Assembly: GCA_002788395.1 (NCBI GenBank)
Contig: PFRF01000056.1
Location: 1 to 45,925 of the forward strand
DNA length: 45,925 bases
Direction: 5' to 3'
DNA from: Candidatus Levybacteria bacterium CG_4_9_14_0_2_um_filter_35_21
GTDB taxonomy: Bacteria > Patescibacteriota > Microgenomatia > Levybacterales > UBA12049
This document shows, piece after piece, positions 4,815 to 15,406 of the stretch (position 1 is its first letter; the number at the start of each line of letters is the position of its first letter). A program made the position numbers and the translations under genes. The notes under the pieces were generated by a model. That model did not search any database, was not told the origin of the DNA, and worked only from the letters and a program-made list of their open reading frames with translations.

Positions 4815-4844
4815 TTGACAGAAATATATTAAGTGAACTATGAT
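4815..4844 (+). promoter_or_regulatory. Sigma70-type promoter of the 198-aa repeat protein gene
   Basis: TTGACA, 18 nt spacer, TATGAT. Confidence 0.65.
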
Positions 4845-4905
4845 TTTTACTAATCAAAGGCAGGATAAATATCAAATAGTGCCAATCTGTCCTCTGATTA
4901 TTATT

Positions 4906-4922
4906 TCGACCGTAAACGGAGA
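4906..4922 (+). promoter_or_regulatory. Shared leader motif, copy 1
   Basis: TCGACCGTAAACGGAGA; 16/17 identical to the minus-strand copy at 11308-11324. Confidence 0.7.
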
Positions 4923-4960
4923 AATATGATAGCTGCTCAAATTAATTTTAGGAAAAATAT

Positions 4961-4992
4961 AAGCCTGATATAGAAATATATGGGCTTTTTTT
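4961..4992 (+). terminator. Leader intrinsic terminator
   Basis: AAGCCT-G-ATATA-GAAA-TATAT-GGGCTT-TTTTT upstream of the 5063 start. Confidence 0.6.
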
Positions 4993-5062
4993 GTGTGAAG
5001 ACCTGCCTATCACACAAGCCGAGTCTGCGGGGCATTGCGGACAAGAAGGGGGGTGAAAAATA

Positions 5063-5659
5063 ATGAAAACAAAAATAACAACAGCTTTAGTAACCGGCGC
5101 TCTGCTCGCAGCAACTGTTCTGCCTGCAGCTGCATTTGCAGACAGCGTTACAATTCAAGGAAATGGAGCAGAATCGACTAATGTTGCGGGAATTTTAAAT
5201 ATTAACGCAACTTCTGTTTCGCAAACCAATGAAACCGTTGCGATAACTTTGGTAAGTTCGAAAGCAAACACCGGTGGAAATACTGCCAATGGAAACACAG
5301 GAGGAAATGTTTCCGTAGATGCCGGCAATGCAACTTCAACAGTAAATACCACTGTTAGAGGCTCGACAAACTACGCTGCTATTCCTTGCGGCTGTTCCGA
5401 GGGAACAACCGATATTAAGGTAAAAGGTAACGGCGCAGACTCAACAAATATAGCAGGAGCGGCAAATATAAATCTGTCTAAAACTAGACAGAAAAATAGA
5501 ACTTTTGCAGTCACAGCTGTAAGATCAAGAGCAAGAACCGGAGGCAATACTGCCAATGGAAATACAGGTCCAGGAAGCGTAACTGTTGGAACAACAGGTA
5601 ACGCAAGTTCTACTGTATATACTACAGTAGGAGGAAGTTCAAACACACTTAATCCATAA
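5063..5659 (+). CDS. Secreted Asn/Gly/Thr-rich repeat protein (2 repeats), putative fibre subunit
   Basis: Signal peptide ending AFA; two ~85-aa repeats GNGAxSTN...Q.N...TGGNTANGNTG...GNA joined by CGC; strong SD AAGGGGGGTGA. Confidence 0.85.
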   Translation: MKTKITTALVTGALLAATVLPAAAFADSVTIQGNGAESTNVAGILNINATSVSQTNETVAITLVSSKANTGGNTANGNTGGNVSVDAGNATSTVNTTVRGSTNYAAIPCGCSEGTTDIKVKGNGADSTNIAGAANINLSKTRQKNRTFAVTAVRSRARTGGNTANGNTGPGSVTVGTTGNASSTVYTTVGGSSNTLNP

Positions 5660-5879: not shown

Positions 5880-6452
5880 CTATTTTATCGGGACGGCAAA
5901 AACCAGAAGCCGCATTAAAGAAGTCCCGATAGGAGTACAAGTTTGTAAGATTAGCTTATTTTCCTGATTTTTTTCCAAATATTTAATTTCGTTTGGCCAA
6001 ACGGTTTTTTTATCCATAACTTTATAGTTATACTGTTTTCCTTTATCAAAAATTTTAACAATATCTCCTTTTGTTAATTCCCCCAAACGCAAAAAGATGG
6101 TGTTATATCGAGCTATACGCCATGGTAAATCCGATGAATGTGCAAATATGTAGATTGTTCCGTTTTGAGGCGGAAATGCTGTTCCCTTTGCCTGTGCGAC
6201 TCCTTTTTCCAAAACCGGTCTGTAATCCGCTTCTTTCCAGGGATTAATATCTTTAAAAATAGGTGCTTGAGCATTAATTTTAGGAATTTGAATATAGGTA
6301 CCGTTTTTAATAATATTGTTATCGACTTTAGGAGTAAAAACAAAAAGCATTATATATGGATAATAAATATACAAAAGGAGAAGTGCGGAAAAAAGCATTA
6401 ATAAATTTCCGATATAAAAAGCGAATGGTTTTTTAGGTTTCTTTTGTTTCAT
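5880..6452 (-). CDS. Sortase
   Basis: N-terminal TM, IQIPKIN, IFAHS (His), LILQTCTP (Cys) and downstream Arg; own promoter TTGACT-16-TATAAT at 6488-6461. Confidence 0.92.
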   Translation of the reverse strand: MKQKKPKKPFAFYIGNLLMLFSALLLLYIYYPYIMLFVFTPKVDNNIIKNGTYIQIPKINAQAPIFKDINPWKEADYRPVLEKGVAQAKGTAFPPQNGTIYIFAHSSDLPWRIARYNTIFLRLGELTKGDIVKIFDKGKQYNYKVMDKKTVWPNEIKYLEKNQENKLILQTCTPIGTSLMRLLVFAVPIK

Positions 6453-6494
6453 TGGGTCTTATTATAACGAGGAACTTTGAGGAGTCAAGAAGTA

Positions 6495-7652
6495 TTAAGC
6501 TACAGTCACTCCTGGAGAATTCCCCGAGTGTAGTCGCAGAAATAATCCAGTAAAAAACATTATTAGTGCTCCAAGAATCATTAGGAATAACCAATAACCT
6601 CCACCTGTTGCCGGAAGCATTGCGCCAAGCACTGCTTGAGCAATATTGCTTCCACTGCTTCCGCCATCGCTTCTACCATCACTTCGTCCGTCGCCGCCGC
6701 CGCCACCATTCCCGCCGCCACCCGGTGGTGGTGGAGGTGGAGGAGAGGTTACAGGTGGTGGTGGAGGATTAACCGGCTTCTTACAGGAAAAGCAGGAAAA
6801 GTCAGAATTGTTAATATCTTCGTTACTAATATTAATTGTGCTATCTATGTTTCCTGTTGTAATTAGTACACTGCCGTTATTGTTATCGGCAGAATTGTTA
6901 CCTGTATTTGTATCATCAACTACATTGTTTAAAATGTTGGCAATATTTATAACGGAGTAATCTAATTCGTTTGTACAAGATGCAAAAATATTATTAAATG
7001 ACCCTTCCCCGTTTCCGGAAATTTTATATAAAAACAAACCGTTATTTGTTCCCTGCGGATCACTGTTTTGGTTAATGTTTTTATTATTAATGTTTATCTT
7101 GTCCGTAATATTCCCCGTTATGATTGTTACGTCTCCGTTATTGTTATCGGCTGTATTATTTCCAGTATTAGCATGAACCTCAACATTATTAACGATATTA
7201 ACATTATTGGATTGGGAAATGTTTACAGATGTTCTATTACCAATGTCAATGTTGTTGTTTGAATCGGAGCCATTACCGGTTATTATTACCTCTCCACTCT
7301 CGCAAGGACCTGAACATTCGCATCCGCCGCAATCTTTATTGCTAAAATTATTAGTGTTGATATTTTGGTTTTGAATATCTGTCGTAGTTGTAATATTTCC
7401 TGTTGAAATATTGGTATCTCCAGAGTTTGAGTTTGCAGTGTTATCTCCGGTATTAGCATCTGAATTTACCTGATTATTAATATCCGCATTATTGGATTGA
7501 TTTACAGTTGTAGCATTTTGTACCGAAACATTAACCGCATTCTGCGAGGAATCTCCATTACCTTCTATAGAAAGCACGGTTTCTGCTCCCGCAACTTTTG
7601 GCGAAACAATAAATAATACTAATGACAGAAATAAAATACTTATCTTTTTCAT
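6495..7652 (-). CDS. Asn-rich repeat protein with LPXTG sorting signal
   Basis: Signal peptide, 3 repeats with Cys-containing linkers, poly-Pro/Gly spacer, LPATG followed by a hydrophobic helix. Confidence 0.88.
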   Translation of the reverse strand: MKKISILFLSLVLFIVSPKVAGAETVLSIEGNGDSSQNAVNVSVQNATTVNQSNNADINNQVNSDANTGDNTANSNSGDTNISTGNITTTTDIQNQNINTNNFSNKDCGGCECSGPCESGEVIITGNGSDSNNNIDIGNRTSVNISQSNNVNIVNNVEVHANTGNNTADNNNGDVTIITGNITDKININNKNINQNSDPQGTNNGLFLYKISGNGEGSFNNIFASCTNELDYSVINIANILNNVVDDTNTGNNSADNNNGSVLITTGNIDSTINISNEDINNSDFSCFSCKKPVNPPPPPVTSPPPPPPPGGGGNGGGGGDGRSDGRSDGGSSGSNIAQAVLGAMLPATGGGYWLFLMILGALIMFFTGLFLRLHSGNSPGVTVA

Positions 7653-7675
7653 ATTAGAAGACTTTTAAAATTTAT

Positions 7676-9817
7676 TTATTTTAAAAATCGGGGCAGATTT
7701 TTTATTTTCTTACCCAGGACAAGGAGCAGGACAATTCCCGGGATCAGAACAATTAACCACGCTGCGTTGATCTTAATTGCTTTTGTATCGGTTTTACCAA
7801 GCACATTTTTGGCAAGAATATTTTTTGCCTGATCAGAAACTCCGGCTACCAATACGCTGGTAAAAGAACCACCGTTGTTTACTAAAGCGTTCGAAGTAAC
7901 CGAAGCAGCAACAGCTCCGCTTTGCCCGTTGTCGCTATTTGAGTTATTATTTGATCCGCCGGAATTTCCATTGTTTAAATTATTGTCTTGATTCTGAACA
8001 GCTGCAGTCTGTGTTTGCTGATTATTGTTTTCTGTTTTTTGCTGTTTTGTTTGGCCGGGAGCTATAAAATCTCCAAGCCAGCTGCCAAAAACATTAATAA
8101 CCGTTACAACTAACTTCCCATTGCTGGCTATATTGTTGTTAACAAAATTAACAATATTTGCAATTATTTTTGCATCACCAGTAACAATACCTGAATTCCC
8201 ACCGGTATTAAAGTTTGATGTATTATTACCCGTATTCGCAGATAAATTAAGGGCGTTATTTACATTTGCAGTATTGCTTTGAACAACGGTATTATTCGTT
8301 GTTTGATTTGCGTTACTTGAATTGGATGAATTTGCGCCATTTGCATTATTTATTGCTGTAACTTCCCCTGTAACAGGATCTACTGCAAATTCTGTTCCCG
8401 CAGATCCGGCAAAAGTGGATCCGTCCGGAGAGCCAATGATTTGACCAAACCATTGCCCTGCTCTATTAACTATTACCAACCACCAATTACCGCCGTCAAT
8501 ATTGGAATTTGCAATATTCAAGACGTTTGCGTCTACCTCCGCATTGCCTGTTTTAATAGTTGAATTGCTATCCGTGTTAAAGTTTGTATCGTTATTTCCT
8601 GTTTGAGCATCTAGCACAAGCGCATTATTAATGGATGCGTCGTTTGATTGAAAAGTGTTGTCATTGGTTATGCTCGTTGCGCCTGCAGTGTTATTAGAAC
8701 CTGCGCCATTATCTGTATTTACGGCTACTGCCGAACCGCCACAGCTTCCCCCGCAAATTTTATTTATTGCATCTTCTGTGAGTATAATATTTCCAATTAA
8801 ATCCCCGAAAATATTAACAACTCCATAGATGATGTTTCCTGCAATATTATTGTTAACAAATGTTAAAGCATTAGCAGAAACATTAGCATCGCCTGTAACA
8901 ATATCTGAGTCGCCTCCGGTGTTAAAGCTTGCATCATTATTACCTGAATCTGCGCTAAGAGTGAGATTGCTGGATACACCTGCATTATTTGTTTGAGTGG
9001 TGTTATTATTCGTGGTGCTATTGCTATCTGATTGATTAGTGGAGCCTGCTCCGTTTCCTGTGTTTGAGGCAGTCGTTGAACCTGAACCGCATCCGTTTAC
9101 ACAGTTTGCGCCAAAATCTAAAACTATATCTCCAACGTGATCATCTGCAATGTTAAACTCCGCTACCGCTACGCCGTCTACATTAGTATTAACTGCTGTA
9201 ATAACTGTTCCGGAGGTATTAGCATCGCCTGTTTTAATAGATGAATCCCCGACATTAAAAGAAGTATTATTTTGTCCGGTAACAGTCGCCTGATTTAAAT
9301 TATTATTAACAGTTGCGCTGTTTCCCTGAGTTATATTGTTGTTATCAATAACTGATGCAGAAGCGTTATTGGAAGAATCTGCTCCGTTTCCGGTATTTGA
9401 AACCGAAACACTTTCACCATCTCCATTACCTGCTGCCGCGAGGTTTGAATTACCGGTTGTTAATAATGAAGTATCATTGGTTGCATCTCCGGTAACGATT
9501 GCTGGATCTCCCGTACCCCCACTGATAGACGTTTCCTGCTCTGGATTTGTACTATTAATCGTCGCTGTTGGAGCAGTCGGAGCTTCGGGTGCTGTTGGAG
9601 CTTCCGGTGCTGTTGGTGCAGTTGGAACCGATGGAGCCGTTGGAACGCTTGGAGCTGTCGGAGCTTCGGGTGCAGTCGGAGCCTCCGGAGCCGTAGGCGC
9701 TGTTGGAGCCGTAGGCGGCGTCGGGATATCTTCCGCATAAACCGGCACAATGCGTGTAAACAGCATTGCTGTTATTAATAGTATAGTTATATATTTTTTA
9801 ATATTTATAATTTTCAT
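7676..9817 (-). CDS. Large Asn-rich repeat protein with C-terminal TM anchor
   Basis: Signal peptide, (PTA)n tract, about 4-5 repeats (GNGAxSxN...TGxNxxxFNTGG...TGDA), CxxxC linkers, C-terminal TM and basic tail. Confidence 0.88.
9561..9724 (-). repeat. 9-bp-period coding tandem repeat (PTA/PEA/PSV)n
   Basis: [30 protein letters not shown]... Confidence 0.9.
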
Positions 9818-9919: not shown

Positions 9920-11164
9920 TTAACCCATGTGCAAGAATGCCCAAAGAGCTGCAAAATTGAATGAAAATTCAACATTTGGCATCTCTGGCCAATCAATACC
10001 CATTAGGTCACCTACTACGTTTACGTTTCCGGAATTATTTACACCTGTATCAACAAGCGCGTCTCCGGTAACGATTGCTGGATCTCCTCCTTCGACACTA
10101 CCGGTGTTTGACTCAACGTCATTTTTACCGGTCTTAGCATCTAGATCTTTAAGATCGTTTCTAAGGTTAGACAAATTTCCCTGACCAACAGCTTGTAAGC
10201 TATTAAGAGTCAAGGTAATAATATTGTCTGCCCTGTCGAAATCGGGCTCTGCTCCGTTTCCGGCAATTTTTGCCAGAACATCCCATGTGCATCCGCAATC
10301 AACATCTGCGTAGTTGAAGTTAACCGCATTATCAATATCGGCTTCGACTGTTGCATTTCCGGTGCCAATGATTACATCGCCTCCTGTATTAAAGTTTGCG
10401 TCATTTTCACCTGTTTCTGCGTCTGCATCAACATTGTTGGTAACGTTTGCTACATTGTTTTGCGAAACGCTGGTAACTTTAGCAAGAGCTGCGGTAATAT
10501 AATTACCGCTTCCCGCGCCGTTTCCAGTTATTACAAATGAAGCAGATGGGTTCGATGCTCCAAGAGCGGATCCTACTTTAGTAGAATTAACATTTGCAGT
10601 AGTTGAAATGTTAGTATCTACCTTAGCGTCTCCGGTTACGATCATTACATCGCCTCCGGTGTTCATATTTGCATCGTTTTCACCTGTTTCTGCGTCTGCA
10701 TCAACATTGTTGGTAACGTTTGCTACATTGTTTTGTCTAACAGCCGTAGTTGTTGTTTGATCAAGTTTTACTCCGTTGTCGGAATATGCTCCGTTTCCGG
10801 AGATTTTGACATCGGTTGAACCTGCTGCGCAACAATCTACTTGTGCTGCGTTGCTGTTAAGCGTATTTACAATGTCCGCTTTAACTGTTGCTTTCCCCGT
10901 GTCAACAACTACAGTTCCTCCGGTATTGAAGTTTGCGTCATTGTCACCTGTTTTTGCGTCTGCATCAACATTGTTGGTAACGTTTGCAGTATTGTTTTGC
11001 GTAACTGTTGTTGTGTTACTTTGAGTAACATTTGCCCAGTTATCAGAACCTGCTCCGTTTCCGGAAATAACCACGTTTGTTTCTGCGAACACTATTGGGG
11101 TTAAAACATTAAGTAAAATTGCTGATGTAGCAATTCCTGTAACTATTCTTCTTTTTAAATTCAT
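9920..11164 (-). CDS. Secreted repeat protein (4 repeats), putative major fibre subunit
   Basis: Signal peptide ending VFA; four repeats ISGNGAxS.N...QNN.ANVTNNVDADA.TG.NDA.FNTGG...TG.A; CC and CGC linkers; strong SD GAGGGAGGTGA. Confidence 0.88.
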   Translation of the reverse strand: MNLKRRIVTGIATSAILLNVLTPIVFAETNVVISGNGAGSDNWANVTQSNTTTVTQNNTANVTNNVDADAKTGDNDANFNTGGTVVVDTGKATVKADIVNTLNSNAAQVDCCAAGSTDVKISGNGAYSDNGVKLDQTTTTAVRQNNVANVTNNVDADAETGENDANMNTGGDVMIVTGDAKVDTNISTTANVNSTKVGSALGASNPSASFVITGNGAGSGNYITAALAKVTSVSQNNVANVTNNVDADAETGENDANFNTGGDVIIGTGNATVEADIDNAVNFNYADVDCGCTWDVLAKIAGNGAEPDFDRADNIITLTLNSLQAVGQGNLSNLRNDLKDLDAKTGKNDVESNTGSVEGGDPAIVTGDALVDTGVNNSGNVNVVGDLMGIDWPEMPNVEFSFNFAALWAFLHMG

Positions 11165-11256
11165 TTATATTCACCTCCCCTCTTTTATATATTTCCTTCG
11201 ATCTTTCGAAAGATTACACTTCTTTCTCCGTATCTTTTTTTTCGTGCCTAAGCCCG

Positions 11257-11316
11257 AAAAACAAAAAACGGAAACTTCTTCACACAACCTTAATTTGTGT
11301 AAAAAAGTCTCCGTTT
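11257..11316 (-). terminator. Long leader terminator overlapping the shared motif
   Basis: 22-bp stem AAACGGAGACUUUUUUACACAA / UUGUGUGAAGAAGUUUCCGUUU with 3 G-U pairs, 7-nt loop, then UUUGUUUUU. Confidence 0.8.
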
Positions 11317-11324
11317 GCGGTCGA
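11308..11324 (-). promoter_or_regulatory. Shared leader motif, copy 2
   Basis: TCGACCGCAAACGGAGA on the minus strand. Confidence 0.7.
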
Positions 11325-11336
11325 CCTATTTCGTTA

Positions 11337-11365
11337 TTTATAACTCGAAACTACCTTTTTGTCAA
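11337..11365 (-). promoter_or_regulatory. Sigma70-type promoter of the repeat-protein operon
   Basis: TTGACA (11365-11360), 17 nt spacer, TATAAA. Confidence 0.6.
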
Positions 11366-11373
11366 TATCCAAT

Positions 11374-11634
11374 TTACTCAGGGCTTATGACATTTTTCGT
11401 ACTTTTTAGAGCTTCTATTCTGCTATTGCTGCTAATTGTAATGTTTTGAATATTTTGCACCCGCTTTTTCTCCGCTTGACCAACTTCCATGCTAGTTTTT
11501 CTAATATTTCTGACTGTTATTTGAGTTACTTTACGGTCGCTTACATAAAGCTCCACACTGCCGAAGACTATATCTGACAAGGCTCTTTCTATTTCTCCTA
11601 ATAAACTAACTTTATCCTTTTGCGAATAAACCAT
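11374..11634 (-). CDS. DUF2292/YezD-like small protein
   Basis: IERALSDIVFGSVELYVSDRKVTQI fits the YezD/DUF2292 pattern (AL..I.FGSVE..V.D..V.QI) by recognition. Confidence 0.75.
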   Translation of the reverse strand: MVYSQKDKVSLLGEIERALSDIVFGSVELYVSDRKVTQITVRNIRKTSMEVGQAEKKRVQNIQNITISSNSRIEALKSTKNVISPE

Positions 11635-11635
11635 A

Positions 11636-12442
11636 TTATTTAAGTTTTAATTCAATGATTTCTTTTTTGCCGTCAATTTCTCCGATTTGCAACCTCAAAC
11701 TACTACTTATTTCATTTATTGGAAAACCCAACCTTGTTAACTTAGTAGAAATTGCCTGGACTTCTACCGGGTCATTATGAATATCTGCTGCAATCCACTC
11801 ATTTTGATTATTTACGGAAAGTCTTACGTAATCTTTGCTATTTATTTGCACCCCCTGAGAGTTATCGTTTATTATTTTAATATTTAGAATAAGAAATATT
11901 CTTCCCTTTACAGCCCTTGCCCTTTGTCCCTTAACTATTATTGAATCCTGAAGCTCTGCGGTTTCAATTTTATAGGTTAGCTCTCCGACCTTTTTTCCTT
12001 TTTCATTTTTTAGAGGAAAATTAAATTTTTTATTTAGTTCCTGTTTGGCCAGTGTTGTTGCAGGAAGAGGCCTACTATTCTCAGCGCTATTATTACTATT
12101 ATTGACTTGCCCTTGACCAAAAGATTTACCAATATAAAAAGTAGTTATGATGACGATGACAATTCCTAAAGCAGGATAAAAATATTTTTTGTATTTTCTA
12201 AAGTTACCATTTCTAAATTTATTTGTTGAGCTGGCAACCCGTTGTTTAAACTCGGCGCTTTTTATTTGTCTTTTTGTTTTGTGGAAAAAATTCCAAAAAG
12301 CTTTTTTTTGTTTTTCTCCAAAGTTATTTTTCTCTTCTTTTTGCTCCGCGGCTGAAGATTCGTTATCCGGATTACTTAATATAGGCGTAGATAAATTCAG
12401 TTCTTCCATAAAAATTGCCCCAATATGGGGCAGGTTTTTCAA
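11636..12442 (-). CDS. Single-TM protein with extracellular beta-rich (DUF4352-like) domain
   Basis: Basic N-region, TM, FLILNIKIIND...YVRLSV...LGFPI; true start may be MEELNL. Confidence 0.7.
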   Translation of the reverse strand: MKNLPHIGAIFMEELNLSTPILSNPDNESSAAEQKEEKNNFGEKQKKAFWNFFHKTKRQIKSAEFKQRVASSTNKFRNGNFRKYKKYFYPALGIVIVIITTFYIGKSFGQGQVNNSNNSAENSRPLPATTLAKQELNKKFNFPLKNEKGKKVGELTYKIETAELQDSIIVKGQRARAVKGRIFLILNIKIINDNSQGVQINSKDYVRLSVNNQNEWIAADIHNDPVEVQAISTKLTRLGFPINEISSSLRLQIGEIDGKKEIIELKLK

Positions 12443-13024: not shown

Positions 13025-15406
13025 TTAGTTAATTTTTATGAGAAGCTGACTATCTTCGTCTACAGTTAAGGCAACTTTATCTCCTCTTTTAATTTCTCCC
13101 GAAAGAATTTTTTTTGCAATTAGGTTTTCTACATTATCTTGTATATAATGTTTTAGCGGACGGGCACCAAATTGCTGGTCGAATCCTTCGCTTGCAATTT
13201 TTAAAACTATTTTTTCATCAAAGGTTATTGTAATATCTTTTTCCTTCATCATTTTGGAAAAACTTTCTAACAAAAGCTTTGTAACCTGTGTTACTTCTTC
13301 TGGAGTTAACGGCTTAAAAACAATTGTATCGTCAAACCTATTAATAAGTTCAGGTTTAAAAATTCCTTTTGTTTGCAGAAAATCAAATAATTTCTCTTTA
13401 AAGCTTTTATCCAAATTAGGAGATTTTTTTACCTCCTCCCGGATCATTTCCGAAGCAGCATTTGATGTTGCAATAATAATTGCGTTTGCAAAAGAAACTG
13501 TCTTTCCCTTATTATCCGTTAATCTTCCGTCGTCAAAAACCTGTAAAAATAAATCGTGAATTTTATAATTAGCTTTTTCGAATTCATCCAAAAGAATTAA
13601 GCAATATGGATTGTCATAAACCTTGTCTGTTAATTCCCCTTTTTCCGAACCCTCGCCCGGCATTGCGCCAAGCAATCTTTTTACCCCATCTTCCGAAGAA
13701 TATTCGCTCATATCAAGCCTTATCATTGTTTCTTCCGATCCGTAATAAATTTCGGCCAGAGCCTTTGCCGTTTCCGTTTTTCCAACTCCTGTTGGTCCTA
13801 AGAATAGAAATGATATCGGTTTTTTCTGATCGGAAAGACCCGACCTTAACCTTCTCATTGCTTCCGAAACTGCTAAAACAGCTTCATCCTGACCAATAAC
13901 TCTTTTATGCATTTGTTCTTCCATATGCAGTAATAATTCTTTTTCTTTTTCTTTTGGCACACCAACGGAAACGCTCATTTTTCTTTCTACTTGGGCAATA
14001 ATATCCTCTTCTTCCAATTCTTTTTTTCCGGAAATAGATATTGCGGTCGAGGCATCGTCCAATAATCTTATCGCAGATCCCGGTAAAACCAAATCTTTAT
14101 TGTATTTATCTGCAAATTTTATCGCCTTAAGAAGCGCCCTGTAGCTAATAAAAATATTTTTGATCTTTTCAATATGCCAAGCATTGTTAAAAAGCATTAA
14201 TTTTGTTTTGTCTTCGTCCGGTTCTTCTAATTTAATCGTTTGCAAAGACGACAATAATTCGTGCATCGGCTCTACGTATTGTTTAAAAGCCCCCGGAGTA
14301 ATAGTTGCAACTATCCTAACTATTCCTTTTTCTATATACGGAACAAGTGCTCCGGAAATATCCAAGTGGAAAGCCGAACTTCCCAAAATATTTTCAAAAT
14401 TTTTAATAAAAATTATTACGTCTCCTGCATGAGCAACTTCTGCAATTATTCCGTCAAGTCTTGTCTCAAGCTGTCCTTGATTTTCTGCACCTGCCAAAAA
14501 TGCGTCAACCATAAGCTGAAAAAATCTTTGGTGATAAAGATTTCCTTTTAGTTTTCCGGAAAAACTATCTAAAGCAAATGCCTGCATTAAGGATTCTCTG
14601 CCCGAACCGGGATCTCCAATAATAAGTGTGCTTTTATTTACTACTAAAGATTCTATAAGCATTTTGTACTCATCGTTTCTGGCAACCACCGAAGGATTTC
14701 TTTTTGTAATCTCCGAAGTTAAATCGACCATGTATTTTTCGGTTTCGATCGTCCACCCGTTAACCCAGTTTTCGGCCATTCCCTGTCCCCAAAAAACTAT
14801 TTCCGTTTGCTTAGGTTTTTCAAGGTTGGGAAAACTAATCTTTGTCCAAGCTAAGATACTTAACAAGTCTTCATTTTTTAATTGTTTTTTAAAAAGGAGT
14901 TTTGTTTTATCTTCTGTAACTAAAAAGTAGGCTGCAAAAAGATCAGCTTCGGTAACAAAATTACTCCCCAGTTTTTTTGCTAAATCAAAAGCAAGATCTT
15001 TAAGTTGATCTTTATCAAAATCGAGGTTGCTAATTTCTTTTTCTTCCGCATCAATTTTTTTTAAGAGAAATCTGCCGGAGTTATGCTTTTTAAGCTTAGC
15101 CAAAAAATTAACTTTAGGACTTATATATAAAGTTAATGCTTCCATTGTAAAAGACTCCAATAAATTTTCTTTATTCTCTAATGTCTTAATTTTTGGAAAT
15201 TTATTTTGCACTTTTTTCTTAAAGAAAAATTCTATCATTATAAAAATACAAAGAAAAAATAATGGGTATTTTAAATTTGTTAATTTTTGCGGAACAATTA
15301 AAAATTGATTTACGGTTCCTGAAAAAAGCAAAATAAATATTAAAAAGCGAACTAATTTTGCAAAGCCCAAATTATAATAATAAAAAATTTTGGCGTAATT
15401 TATCAT
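13025..15406 (-). CDS. Membrane-anchored ClpA/B-family AAA+ protein with degenerate first ATPase domain
   Basis: Two N-terminal TM segments; D1 GDPGSGRES and IIFIKNFE; D2 intact GPTGVGKT, RLDMSEY, LLDEFEKA, FGARPL. Confidence 0.9.
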   Translation of the reverse strand: MINYAKIFYYYNLGFAKLVRFLIFILLFSGTVNQFLIVPQKLTNLKYPLFFLCIFIMIEFFFKKKVQNKFPKIKTLENKENLLESFTMEALTLYISPKVNFLAKLKKHNSGRFLLKKIDAEEKEISNLDFDKDQLKDLAFDLAKKLGSNFVTEADLFAAYFLVTEDKTKLLFKKQLKNEDLLSILAWTKISFPNLEKPKQTEIVFWGQGMAENWVNGWTIETEKYMVDLTSEITKRNPSVVARNDEYKMLIESLVVNKSTLIIGDPGSGRESLMQAFALDSFSGKLKGNLYHQRFFQLMVDAFLAGAENQGQLETRLDGIIAEVAHAGDVIIFIKNFENILGSSAFHLDISGALVPYIEKGIVRIVATITPGAFKQYVEPMHELLSSLQTIKLEEPDEDKTKLMLFNNAWHIEKIKNIFISYRALLKAIKFADKYNKDLVLPGSAIRLLDDASTAISISGKKELEEEDIIAQVERKMSVSVGVPKEKEKELLLHMEEQMHKRVIGQDEAVLAVSEAMRRLRSGLSDQKKPISFLFLGPTGVGKTETAKALAEIYYGSEETMIRLDMSEYSSEDGVKRLLGAMPGEGSEKGELTDKVYDNPYCLILLDEFEKANYKIHDLFLQVFDDGRLTDNKGKTVSFANAIIIATSNAASEMIREEVKKSPNLDKSFKEKLFDFLQTKGIFKPELINRFDDTIVFKPLTPEEVTQVTKLLLESFSKMMKEKDITITFDEKIVLKIASEGFDQQFGARPLKHYIQDNVENLIAKKILSGEIKRGDKVALTVDEDSQLLIKIN

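Follow-up and report, generated by a model that had tools for sequence, protein, structure and literature searches.

A conserved 19-nt RNA hairpin linked to a DUF2292-like gene: a candidate protein-dependent antitermination switch for surface-fibre genes in Levybacteria

Background

Antitermination by the BglG, SacY, LicT and GlcT proteins of Bacillus subtilis and Escherichia coli involves a ribonucleic antiterminator (RAT) hairpin of about 29 nucleotides (nt), proteins built from CAT and PRD domains, and targets concerned with sugar uptake, and in loci such as licT-bglPH and glcT-ptsG the elements follow one another in the order regulator gene, promoter, hairpin overlapping a terminator, and target operon. 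The Bacillus proteins HutP, PyrR and TRAP sense a small ligand and recognise either a series of short single-stranded triplets or a specific antiterminator; PyrR and TRAP promote termination. Here we describe a locus in a 45,925-nt contig of a Candidatus Levybacteria genome (PFRF01000056.1; this whole stretch of DNA is called the window below), in which a small gene of the DUF2292/YezD family is followed by a promoter-like site, a 19-nt RNA hairpin and an intrinsic terminator, ahead of a cluster of surface-fibre genes. To our knowledge, the Microgenomates, to which the Levybacteria belong, are not culturable and their gene regulation is almost unknown. The literature that we searched offered nothing relevant on an RNA motif or terminator of Microgenomates or on antitermination in Patescibacteria, and gave no mechanism for the DUF2292/YezD/OscA family.

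The locus resembles the BglG/LicT systems in that the gene lies just upstream of the promoter, the 3' part of the hairpin is also the 5' arm of the terminator, and the target operon follows; termination by default, with a bound protein stabilising the weaker hairpin, is proposed here as a further likeness, and internal loops and sequence-specific stem bases are shared as well. It differs from them in its protein, which is 60-90 amino acids (aa) long, lacks CAT and PRD domains and is predicted to fold into a single helix and a single beta hairpin, in its hairpin, which is 19 nt long and of unrelated sequence, in its targets, which are surface fibres, and in that some copies do not overlap a terminator. 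As with lambda N and the boxB of its nut site, a small basic protein is found together with a small stem-loop on the nascent RNA near a promoter, but the two systems are not homologous, we identified no boxA-like element, the genes belong to a cell where N/nut belongs to a phage, and most copies here overlap a terminator, which N/nut does not need. With HutP, PyrR and TRAP the locus shares a small protein whose gene is part of the operon or its neighbour and which would decide between alternative leader folds at an intrinsic terminator; it differs in having one structured hairpin and no known ligand, and in folding energetics that point to activation.

The hairpin and its terminator

The elements at the centre of this analysis lie on the - strand of the window as follows.

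11374..11634, - strand: gene of an 86-aa DUF2292-like (YezD-family) protein, the candidate trans-acting factor, assigned by a Pfam match
11337..11365, - strand: promoter-like site read from the sequence, with TTGACA at 11360-11365, a 17-nt spacer and TATAAA at 11337-11342
11307..11325, - strand: 19-nt RNA hairpin GUC-GA-CCG-CAAA-CGG-A-GAC, sequence GUCGACCGCAAACGGAGAC, defined by alignment, folds and a covariance model
11266..11316, - strand: intrinsic-terminator hairpin of 22 base pairs (bp) including 3 G-U pairs, with a 7-nt loop, defined by folding and stem covariation
11257..11268, - strand: U tract UUUUUUGUUUUU, read from the sequence

The window contains TCGACCGCAAACGGAGA, and the exact core GACCGCAAACGGAG is found at 11309-11322. 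Aligned copies from related genomes gave the consensus GYY-GA-CCG / variable tetraloop / CGG-A-RRC, in which an outer helix of three pairs (1-19, 2-18 and 3-17) and an inner helix of three pairs (6-15, 7-14 and 8-13) are separated by a GA/A internal loop. The tetraloop varies freely (CAAA, UAAA, CACA, CUCU, CAAU, UUAA, CCCA and others), in contrast to the conserved stem bases and the conserved G4, A5 and A16, which is the pattern expected of a protein site.

The structure alignment held 76 copies, 69 of them distinct, gathered by a mismatch-tolerant pattern, a procedure that favours conservation and not compensation. Standard pairs filled 99.8% of the cells in the 69 distinct copies, and both sides had changed in three of the six pairs (G-C to U-A at 1-19, C-G to U-A at 2-18 and C-G to A-U at 7-14); pair 3-17 switched among U-G, C-G and U-A, with U-G in 53 of the 69 copies. 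The observed pairing score was reached by none of 500 shuffles, and partner columns that had been slid out of register gave 22-54% pairing. Further compensatory variants occurred elsewhere, with A-U at 1-19 in Gottesmanbacteria, a flip of the G-C pair at 6-15 in Daviesbacteria, and U-A or A-U at 7-14. Both copies in the window carry U-A at 2-18 and C-G at 3-17, where the consensus has C-G and U-G. A covariance model scored 11307-11325 at 35 bits (E = 7.9e-8) and recovered exactly two copies from the window's genome, both of which are members of its training set, and a search of the same genome allowing up to two mismatches returned nine matches, seven of them chance occurrences in coding regions and two of them the leaders. 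Rfam gave no match at gathering score over the whole window, and within 11100-11700 only sub-threshold chance matches to microRNA and small RNA models.

Three other identities for the element were considered and rejected. A DNA operator does not fit a site whose halves are asymmetric (8 versus 7 nt), whose pair 3-17 is U-G in most copies and which always stands in sense orientation 3' of a promoter. A kink-turn was rejected by its register on inspection. Antitermination of the ANTAR type was rejected in view of the one hairpin with a variable tetraloop, as opposed to the two tandem hexaloop hairpins known for ANTAR, the second of which overlaps the terminator, and of the lack of an ANTAR domain.

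The 5' arm of the terminator starts at motif position 10 and thus reuses the 3' half of the hairpin. Its fold is worth -28.2 kcal/mol on the - strand versus -16.8 kcal/mol on the + strand, and the prediction of an intrinsic terminator rests on a stable stem with a U tract within 0-2 nt on the transcribed strand. A look-up of RNA sequencing runs listed none that contains this stretch. The leader is more structured than its shuffles (z-scores of -5.4 to -6.1; at -5.4, none of 200 shuffles folded as well), and its best fold, at -30.6 kcal/mol, puts motif positions 10-19 into the terminator. When the mini hairpin was enforced, the fold was worth -17.6 kcal/mol and an 11-bp stem was left that ends 10 nt before the U tract, a configuration from which termination is not expected. 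The isolated 19-mer of the window folds as the mini hairpin at -4.6 kcal/mol (-5.5 kcal/mol for the consensus), and since this must compete with a terminator fold of -30.6 kcal/mol, the energetics demand a factor.

These results bear on an earlier note on this DNA, made from the letters and a list of translated open reading frames (ORFs), which had proposed most of the layout. Its order of DUF2292-like gene, promoter, motif and terminator holds on the - strand, with a motif that occurs far beyond chance in related genomes (168 matches against 16 in a control); folding bore out its statement that the 3' half of the motif doubles as the 5' arm of a 22-bp terminator followed by a U tract, as well as the mutual exclusion of the two folds in the window, and its three G-U pairs, exactly three in number, form only on the transcribed strand. 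The mini-hairpin that it had drawn, CCG-CAAA-CGG, was too short: this inner helix is present, but the real unit has 3+3 bp around the GA/A internal loop.

The overlap is widespread among the 76 copies. In 54 of them the terminator overlaps the hairpin, and it does so in two registers, 33 copies having a long terminator of the window's type, with its start at motif position 13, and 21 a short GC-rich terminator that starts at motif position 17 or 18. In 27 leaders of the long type the base of the terminator was invariant and its upper part covaried (7 of 22 pairs). Of 107 loci, 78 had a promoter-like site no more than 130 nt upstream of the motif, compared to 8 of 107 control windows; the 107 loci combine two locus sets that overlap in some genomes. 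The distance from the -10 element to the hairpin ranged from 8 to 99 nt with a median of 32, and in the window the -10 element ends 11 nt ahead of the hairpin. A strict scan that required T at the last -10 position omits the window's site, while a looser scan accepts it. Based on these data, we concluded with high confidence that the hairpin and terminator together form a genuine conserved cis-regulatory RNA.

The DUF2292-like protein and its linkage to the hairpin

The likeness of the protein to the DUF2292/YezD/OscA family is defined by PF10055, which is matched by the window's protein and by all 30 of its aligned relatives (E <= 0.01; best 7.8e-11). The 86-aa ORF scored 23.9 bits against a gathering cut-off of 22, a narrow pass, and the family model run on the genome gave the window's gene 24.2 bits, again above the cut-off; the relatives carry database names such as 'DUF2292 domain-containing' or 'YezD family'. 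The protein is not an equivalog of the sulfur-starvation protein OscA, with 26.9 bits against NCBIfam NF033785 where the curated cut-off is 85, and is only a distant relative of OscA. PF10055 is the only domain found in the protein and the 30 relatives, CAT, PRD and ANTAR domains being absent. An AlphaFold model of moderate confidence (mean predicted local distance difference test score, pLDDT, of 72.7) places residues 5-20 in an N-terminal helix and residues 25-43 in a beta hairpin, with a disordered tail.

The association between this protein and the hairpin was compared within Patescibacteria. The 30 relatives were found in sister genomes, and among the 29 loci that could be checked (one ends at a contig edge) 28 had GCUGACCG-NNNN-CGGAGGC downstream of the small gene. 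In an order-level set of 245 genomes (Levybacteria, Microgenomates), the pattern CTGACCGNNNNCGGAGGC with at most one mismatch was matched 168 times in 128 genomes, and its reversed control 16 times; the DUF2292-like protein occurred in 117 of the genomes, as a single copy in each. A listed motif was present 0-200 nt downstream on the same strand for 100 of the 117 protein genes, and inspection added the hairpin for 10 more (the window and nine other loci), several of them pairing-preserving variants, which brings the total to at least 110 of 117. The remaining seven comprise one gene at a contig end, five that fell outside individual inspection, and that of genome G018, which has no adjacent hairpin but a strong copy 21 kb from the protein gene. 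Similarly, G473 has no adjacent hairpin and a copy 1 kb away. In two genomes of the same genus (G001 and G002) the protein, the motif and the fibre genes are all absent, which makes them uninformative.

A class-wide scan extended the association to 80 loci from Levy-, Gottesman-, Woese-, Davies- and Chisholmbacteria, 76 of which had the motif with up to three mismatches while the other four had recognisable variants with pairing kept. In a phylum-wide sample DUF2292 was rare (6 of 301 genomes), and the covariance model, applied to 151 phylum genomes, gave strong matches only in the two that were DUF2292-positive; one match of 24.7 bits in G390 was judged to be chance, as it looks like coding sequence and DUF2292 is not nearby. 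The best 120 of 1688 matches in a protein search were of Patescibacteria type only, a translated search (tblastn) of plasmids with one relative found no match, and a viral scan found one locus with a DUF2292-like gene, where the motif was absent. Enrichment and covariation of the motif near DUF2292 genes, which had been set beforehand as a check on the proposal across phyla, were found within Patescibacteria.

The neighbouring gene on the other side of the small gene offers a comparison.

11636..12442, - strand: gene of a 268-aa single-pass membrane protein, which stops 1 nt ahead of the start of the small gene

A homologue of this membrane protein lies upstream in 26 of 28 sister loci and 77 of 80 class-wide loci and is present in 111 of the 245 genomes. 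In about a dozen genomes the membrane-protein homologue is absent although DUF2292 and the motif next to it are present, and genomes with the membrane protein and without DUF2292 have no motif. In three of the latter (G133, G032 and G061; 99, 96 and 91% complete, from three genera and two families) the membrane-protein gene stands directly before the fibre gene, and we found no DUF2292-like gene, no hairpin anywhere in the genome and no leader terminator. Judged from gene content, the motif follows the DUF2292 gene and not the membrane-protein neighbour, and the joint loss suggests that the DUF2292 gene and the hairpin-terminator behave as one module that can be inserted or removed.

Further copies of the hairpin

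Genomes of this group have one protein gene and one to three hairpins, which implies a trans-acting factor. The extra copies, seen in several genomes, lie behind promoters in the leaders of secreted repeat proteins, of a TasA/camelysin-like protein with a signal peptidase, and of a nucleotide-sugar dehydrogenase. The window holds one such copy.

4905..4923, + strand: second hairpin copy, UUC-GA-CCG-UAAA-CGG-A-GAA, found by the covariance model (30.4 bits, E = 2.5e-6)
4926..4992, + strand: remainder of the second leader, a 15-codon ORF (ATG at 4926, stop TAG at 4971-4973) and a terminator
5063..5659, + strand: gene of a 198-aa secreted paralogue of the fibre protein, served by the second leader

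This copy begins 60 nt after a promoter-like site (TTGACA at 4815-4820, TATGAT at 4839-4844). Its terminator hairpin, at 4961-4987 with a U tract to 4992, does not overlap the 19-nt hairpin, and has at its top UAUAGAAAUAUA, which is conserved across genera; the stop codon of the 15-codon ORF lies inside the terminator stem. Within the leader as a whole (4815-5062), the blocks AAUAUGA and CAAAUUAAUUU are conserved after the hairpin. In all ten second-type leaders that were aligned an ATG follows the hairpin by 2-5 nt, opening a short ORF that in seven leaders has 11-16 codons and ends in or just before the terminator stem, and in three runs through it. The second leader may therefore be a leader-peptide attenuator with its ribosome-binding site in the hairpin. 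As a separate observation made by eye, many second-type leaders (L074-L086) share a short CUGYCC block 10-40 nt beyond the terminator, the window having CCUGCC at 5000-5010.

Interpretation and alternatives

From the sequence comparisons we incline to the view that the 19-nt hairpin serves as the RNA site to which the product of the adjacent DUF2292-like gene binds and that the pair constitutes a protein-dependent antitermination switch for the fibre genes; that the DUF2292-like protein itself is the antiterminator is, in our judgement, somewhat better than an even bet. Transcription would start at the promoter that follows the small gene, in the window some 5 nt ahead of the hairpin, or else arrive from the upstream operon of membrane protein and DUF2292. 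By default the RNA would fold into the more stable 22-bp terminator and transcription would stop at the U tract. The protein, presumably in response to some signal, would hold the nascent hairpin and make motif positions 13-19 unavailable, so that 10 nt would separate the end of the leftover stem from the U tract and transcription would continue into the genes of the 414-aa, 713-aa and LPATG proteins and of the sortase; the sign of the regulation would then be positive. At the second hairpin (4905-4923) this protein would act in trans. The complex, once bound, may also render the polymerase resistant to terminators, a processive component that is possible since some copies in other genomes do not overlap a terminator.

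Several observations weigh against this interpretation. A profile search of PDB sequences for solved relatives of the protein gave a best E of 0.34, and a Foldseek comparison of its model with the PDB gave no match at E <= 0.001, RNA-binding folds included; structural rows for AbrB and MazE (E about 3, probability <= 0.06) were too weak to be used. The joint presence and loss of gene and hairpin is weaker evidence than it looks because the two are adjacent and one deletion removes both. The linkage has exceptions in either direction: G303 has a divergent PF10055 protein and no hairpin nearby or elsewhere in its genome, while G056 (97% complete), G140 (74%) and G211 (82%) have a hairpin copy and no detected protein gene. 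In G053, which is 100% complete, an intact long terminator and promoter (locus L191) accompany a degenerate hairpin, ACCUACCGAGAACGGAGGC, with no recognisable DUF2292 gene and, at its position, an unrelated or decayed 75-aa ORF; this may be the module caught in decay. As for the RNA, in 15 of the 76 copies the terminator lies 25-80 nt downstream and can coexist with the hairpin, and for seven copies, some of them at contig ends, no terminator was found. Finally, a second, long terminator with the base CGGRR...YYUCCGUUUUU, but without the 5' half of the hairpin, is present at 17 of the 22 short-terminator loci; it resembles the window's terminator and lies 60-180 nt further on (among them L020, L022-L026, L085, L090, L091, L094 and L095; the count of 17 includes less typical ones). 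The 15 non-overlapping copies and these second terminators indicate that simple competition between hairpin and terminator is not the whole mechanism. The antitermination switch of the earlier note is accordingly upheld in part, by the covariation, the overlap in 54 of 76 copies, the promoter, the linkage and the copies in trans.

One alternative accepts the attenuator as real and attributes its control to another protein or a small RNA, with the DUF2292-like gene merely the last of the upstream operon and co-inherited. It draws on the same absence of any sequence or structure match tying DUF2292 to RNA binding, on the fact that adjacency and linkage can be passive, and on the terminators or hairpin copies without a detected protein gene in G053, G056, G140 and G211. 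Yet no other gene shares the distribution of the motif: G133, G032 and G061 have the membrane protein without it, and a dozen genomes with DUF2292 and the motif lack the membrane protein. The low completeness of G140 and G211, one of whose copies stands at a contig end, tempers those two exceptions, and G018 keeps both the protein gene and its sole hairpin although they are 21 kb apart. On these grounds we regard a different factor as unlikely, though deserving of attention.

A second alternative is processive antitermination in the manner of lambda N/nut, in which the hairpin would be a loading site, the protein would ride with RNA polymerase and suppress distant terminators, and the overlap would be incidental. 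Read-through of distant terminators would fit the 15 non-overlapping copies and the second long terminators without a hairpin, and the target is a multi-gene cluster of roughly 5.4 kb. Overlap kept in 54 of 76 copies, and in two registers, is hard to explain if it is irrelevant. According to the abstract of PMC10325885, terminators with extraordinarily long stems withstand processive antitermination; the stems found in these leaders measure 17-22 bp. A purely processive system appears to us a rather poor candidate.

It is less probable still, and in our view clearly improbable, that no factor is involved and that the terminator works as a leaky but constitutive insulator, closing off the upstream operon and dampening the fibre promoter, with the hairpin as a 5' stability or processing element. 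The position of the window's hairpin, about 5 nt from the RNA 5' end, and of the terminator, 58 nt after the stop codon of the small gene and so in the normal place for an operon terminator, would suit such a role. But the hairpin is not generally 5'-terminal, given the range of 8-99 nt from the -10 element, copies also occur far from the end of any upstream operon, a stabiliser does not need class-wide sequence-specific conservation of stem and internal loop, and it would be pointless to set a promoter immediately ahead of a -28 kcal/mol terminator that could not be passed.

The least probable, and in our view very improbable as a full explanation, is that the protein binds the hairpin and acts on translation, the GGAGG of the hairpin serving as ribosome-binding site of a leader ORF so that binding would block leader translation and favour termination, with repression at those sites, for although the ATG that follows the hairpin in all ten second-type leaders (4926-4973 in the window) and the ORF ends in or just before the terminator stem (seven of ten, three running through) agree with it, the conserved CAAAUUAAUUU block falls in different reading frames in different genomes, the encoded peptides have little in common, the window's primary site has no ATG after the hairpin, on which ground a leader peptide there was rejected, and the idea covers second-type sites only and can coexist with antitermination by the DUF2292-like protein.

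That a new variant of protein-dependent antitermination is at hand, with a new RNA motif and a candidate new RNA-binding protein family, is partly supported by these comparisons. More speculatively, DUF2292/YezD/OscA proteins at large might be a widespread class of very small RNA-binding antiterminators that act on hairpins of about 19 nt with a GA/A loop at or before terminators, and, in the Microgenomates of the candidate phyla radiation, might be the master switch of a surface-fibre regulon of sortase-dependent repeat proteins, a TasA-like protein with its signal peptidase and sugar-nucleotide genes, activating the main operon and perhaps repressing alternative fibre genes by way of the leader ORF; we put this forward tentatively, as a generalisation that may well fail. 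A defined candidate RNA partner makes the role of DUF2292 directly testable with one 60-aa protein and one 19-nt RNA. If the proposed switch is real, it would be among the smallest antiterminator systems known and the first regulatory RNA-protein switch described for Microgenomates. Its regulon would consist of secreted repeat proteins, a sortase substrate and TasA-like proteins, the fibres by which these ultra-small groundwater cells may attach to hosts or particles, and the hairpin could be used as a genomic flag for surface-fibre genes.

The surrounding genes and leader

The window's genome is 0.9 Mb in size with 35% G+C, and between 5.9 and 17.6 kb of the window every gene but one is on the - strand. 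Read along that strand, the order at the locus is membrane protein, 86-aa ORF, promoter-like site, hairpin, terminator, U tract, two more hairpins, ribosome-binding site and fibre gene. The features beyond the U tract are listed here.

11237..11260, - strand: post-terminator hairpin, in which bases of the U tract pair with a downstream A tract around a loop at GCUUAGGCA; from the fold, and by eye in relatives
11193..11220, - strand: AGUG and, after it, a hairpin that in the window is the palindrome AUCUUUCGAAAGAU (11201-11214); from the fold and alignment
9920..11178, - strand: Shine-Dalgarno sequence GGAGGUGA (11171-11178) and gene of a 414-aa secreted Asn/Thr/Gly-rich repeat protein, start at 11164

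In most relatives, judged by eye without statistics, a CGG follows the A tract of the post-terminator hairpin. The AGTG ahead of the hairpin that precedes the ribosome-binding site was invariant in 27 of 27 leaders, while the sequence of that hairpin varies among genomes with its potential to fold kept; this AGUG-hairpin and the ribosome-binding site persist in genomes that have lost the DUF2292 gene and the hairpin-terminator.

The 414-aa gene is the first of the fibre cluster, and is followed by genes of a 713-aa protein (7676-9817), a 385-aa LPATG protein (6495-7652) and a sortase (5880-6452), for a multi-gene target of about 5.4 kb. The 713-aa protein, with Pro/Thr/Ala-rich repeats, and the 385-aa repeat protein, which ends in LPATGG and a membrane anchor, are paralogues of the 414-aa protein. 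The genes at 5880-9817 on the - strand make up a sortase-dependent cluster for surface fibres, of a family that is known from Microgenomates alone, the fibre proteins matching only unnamed Microgenomates clusters in a protein atlas. In the 268-aa membrane protein upstream, the outer domain is conserved while the basic N-terminal tail, on the cytoplasmic side, is variable and unconserved.

Two further observations concern other genes of the window. A 177-aa ORF at 2457-2990 on the - strand, between nusA and the fibre cluster, resembles a fragment of a transposase/integrase core when its translation is read by eye, and a 793-aa ClpB-like AAA+ protein encoded at 13025-15406 on the - strand has a hydrophobic segment at its N-terminus.

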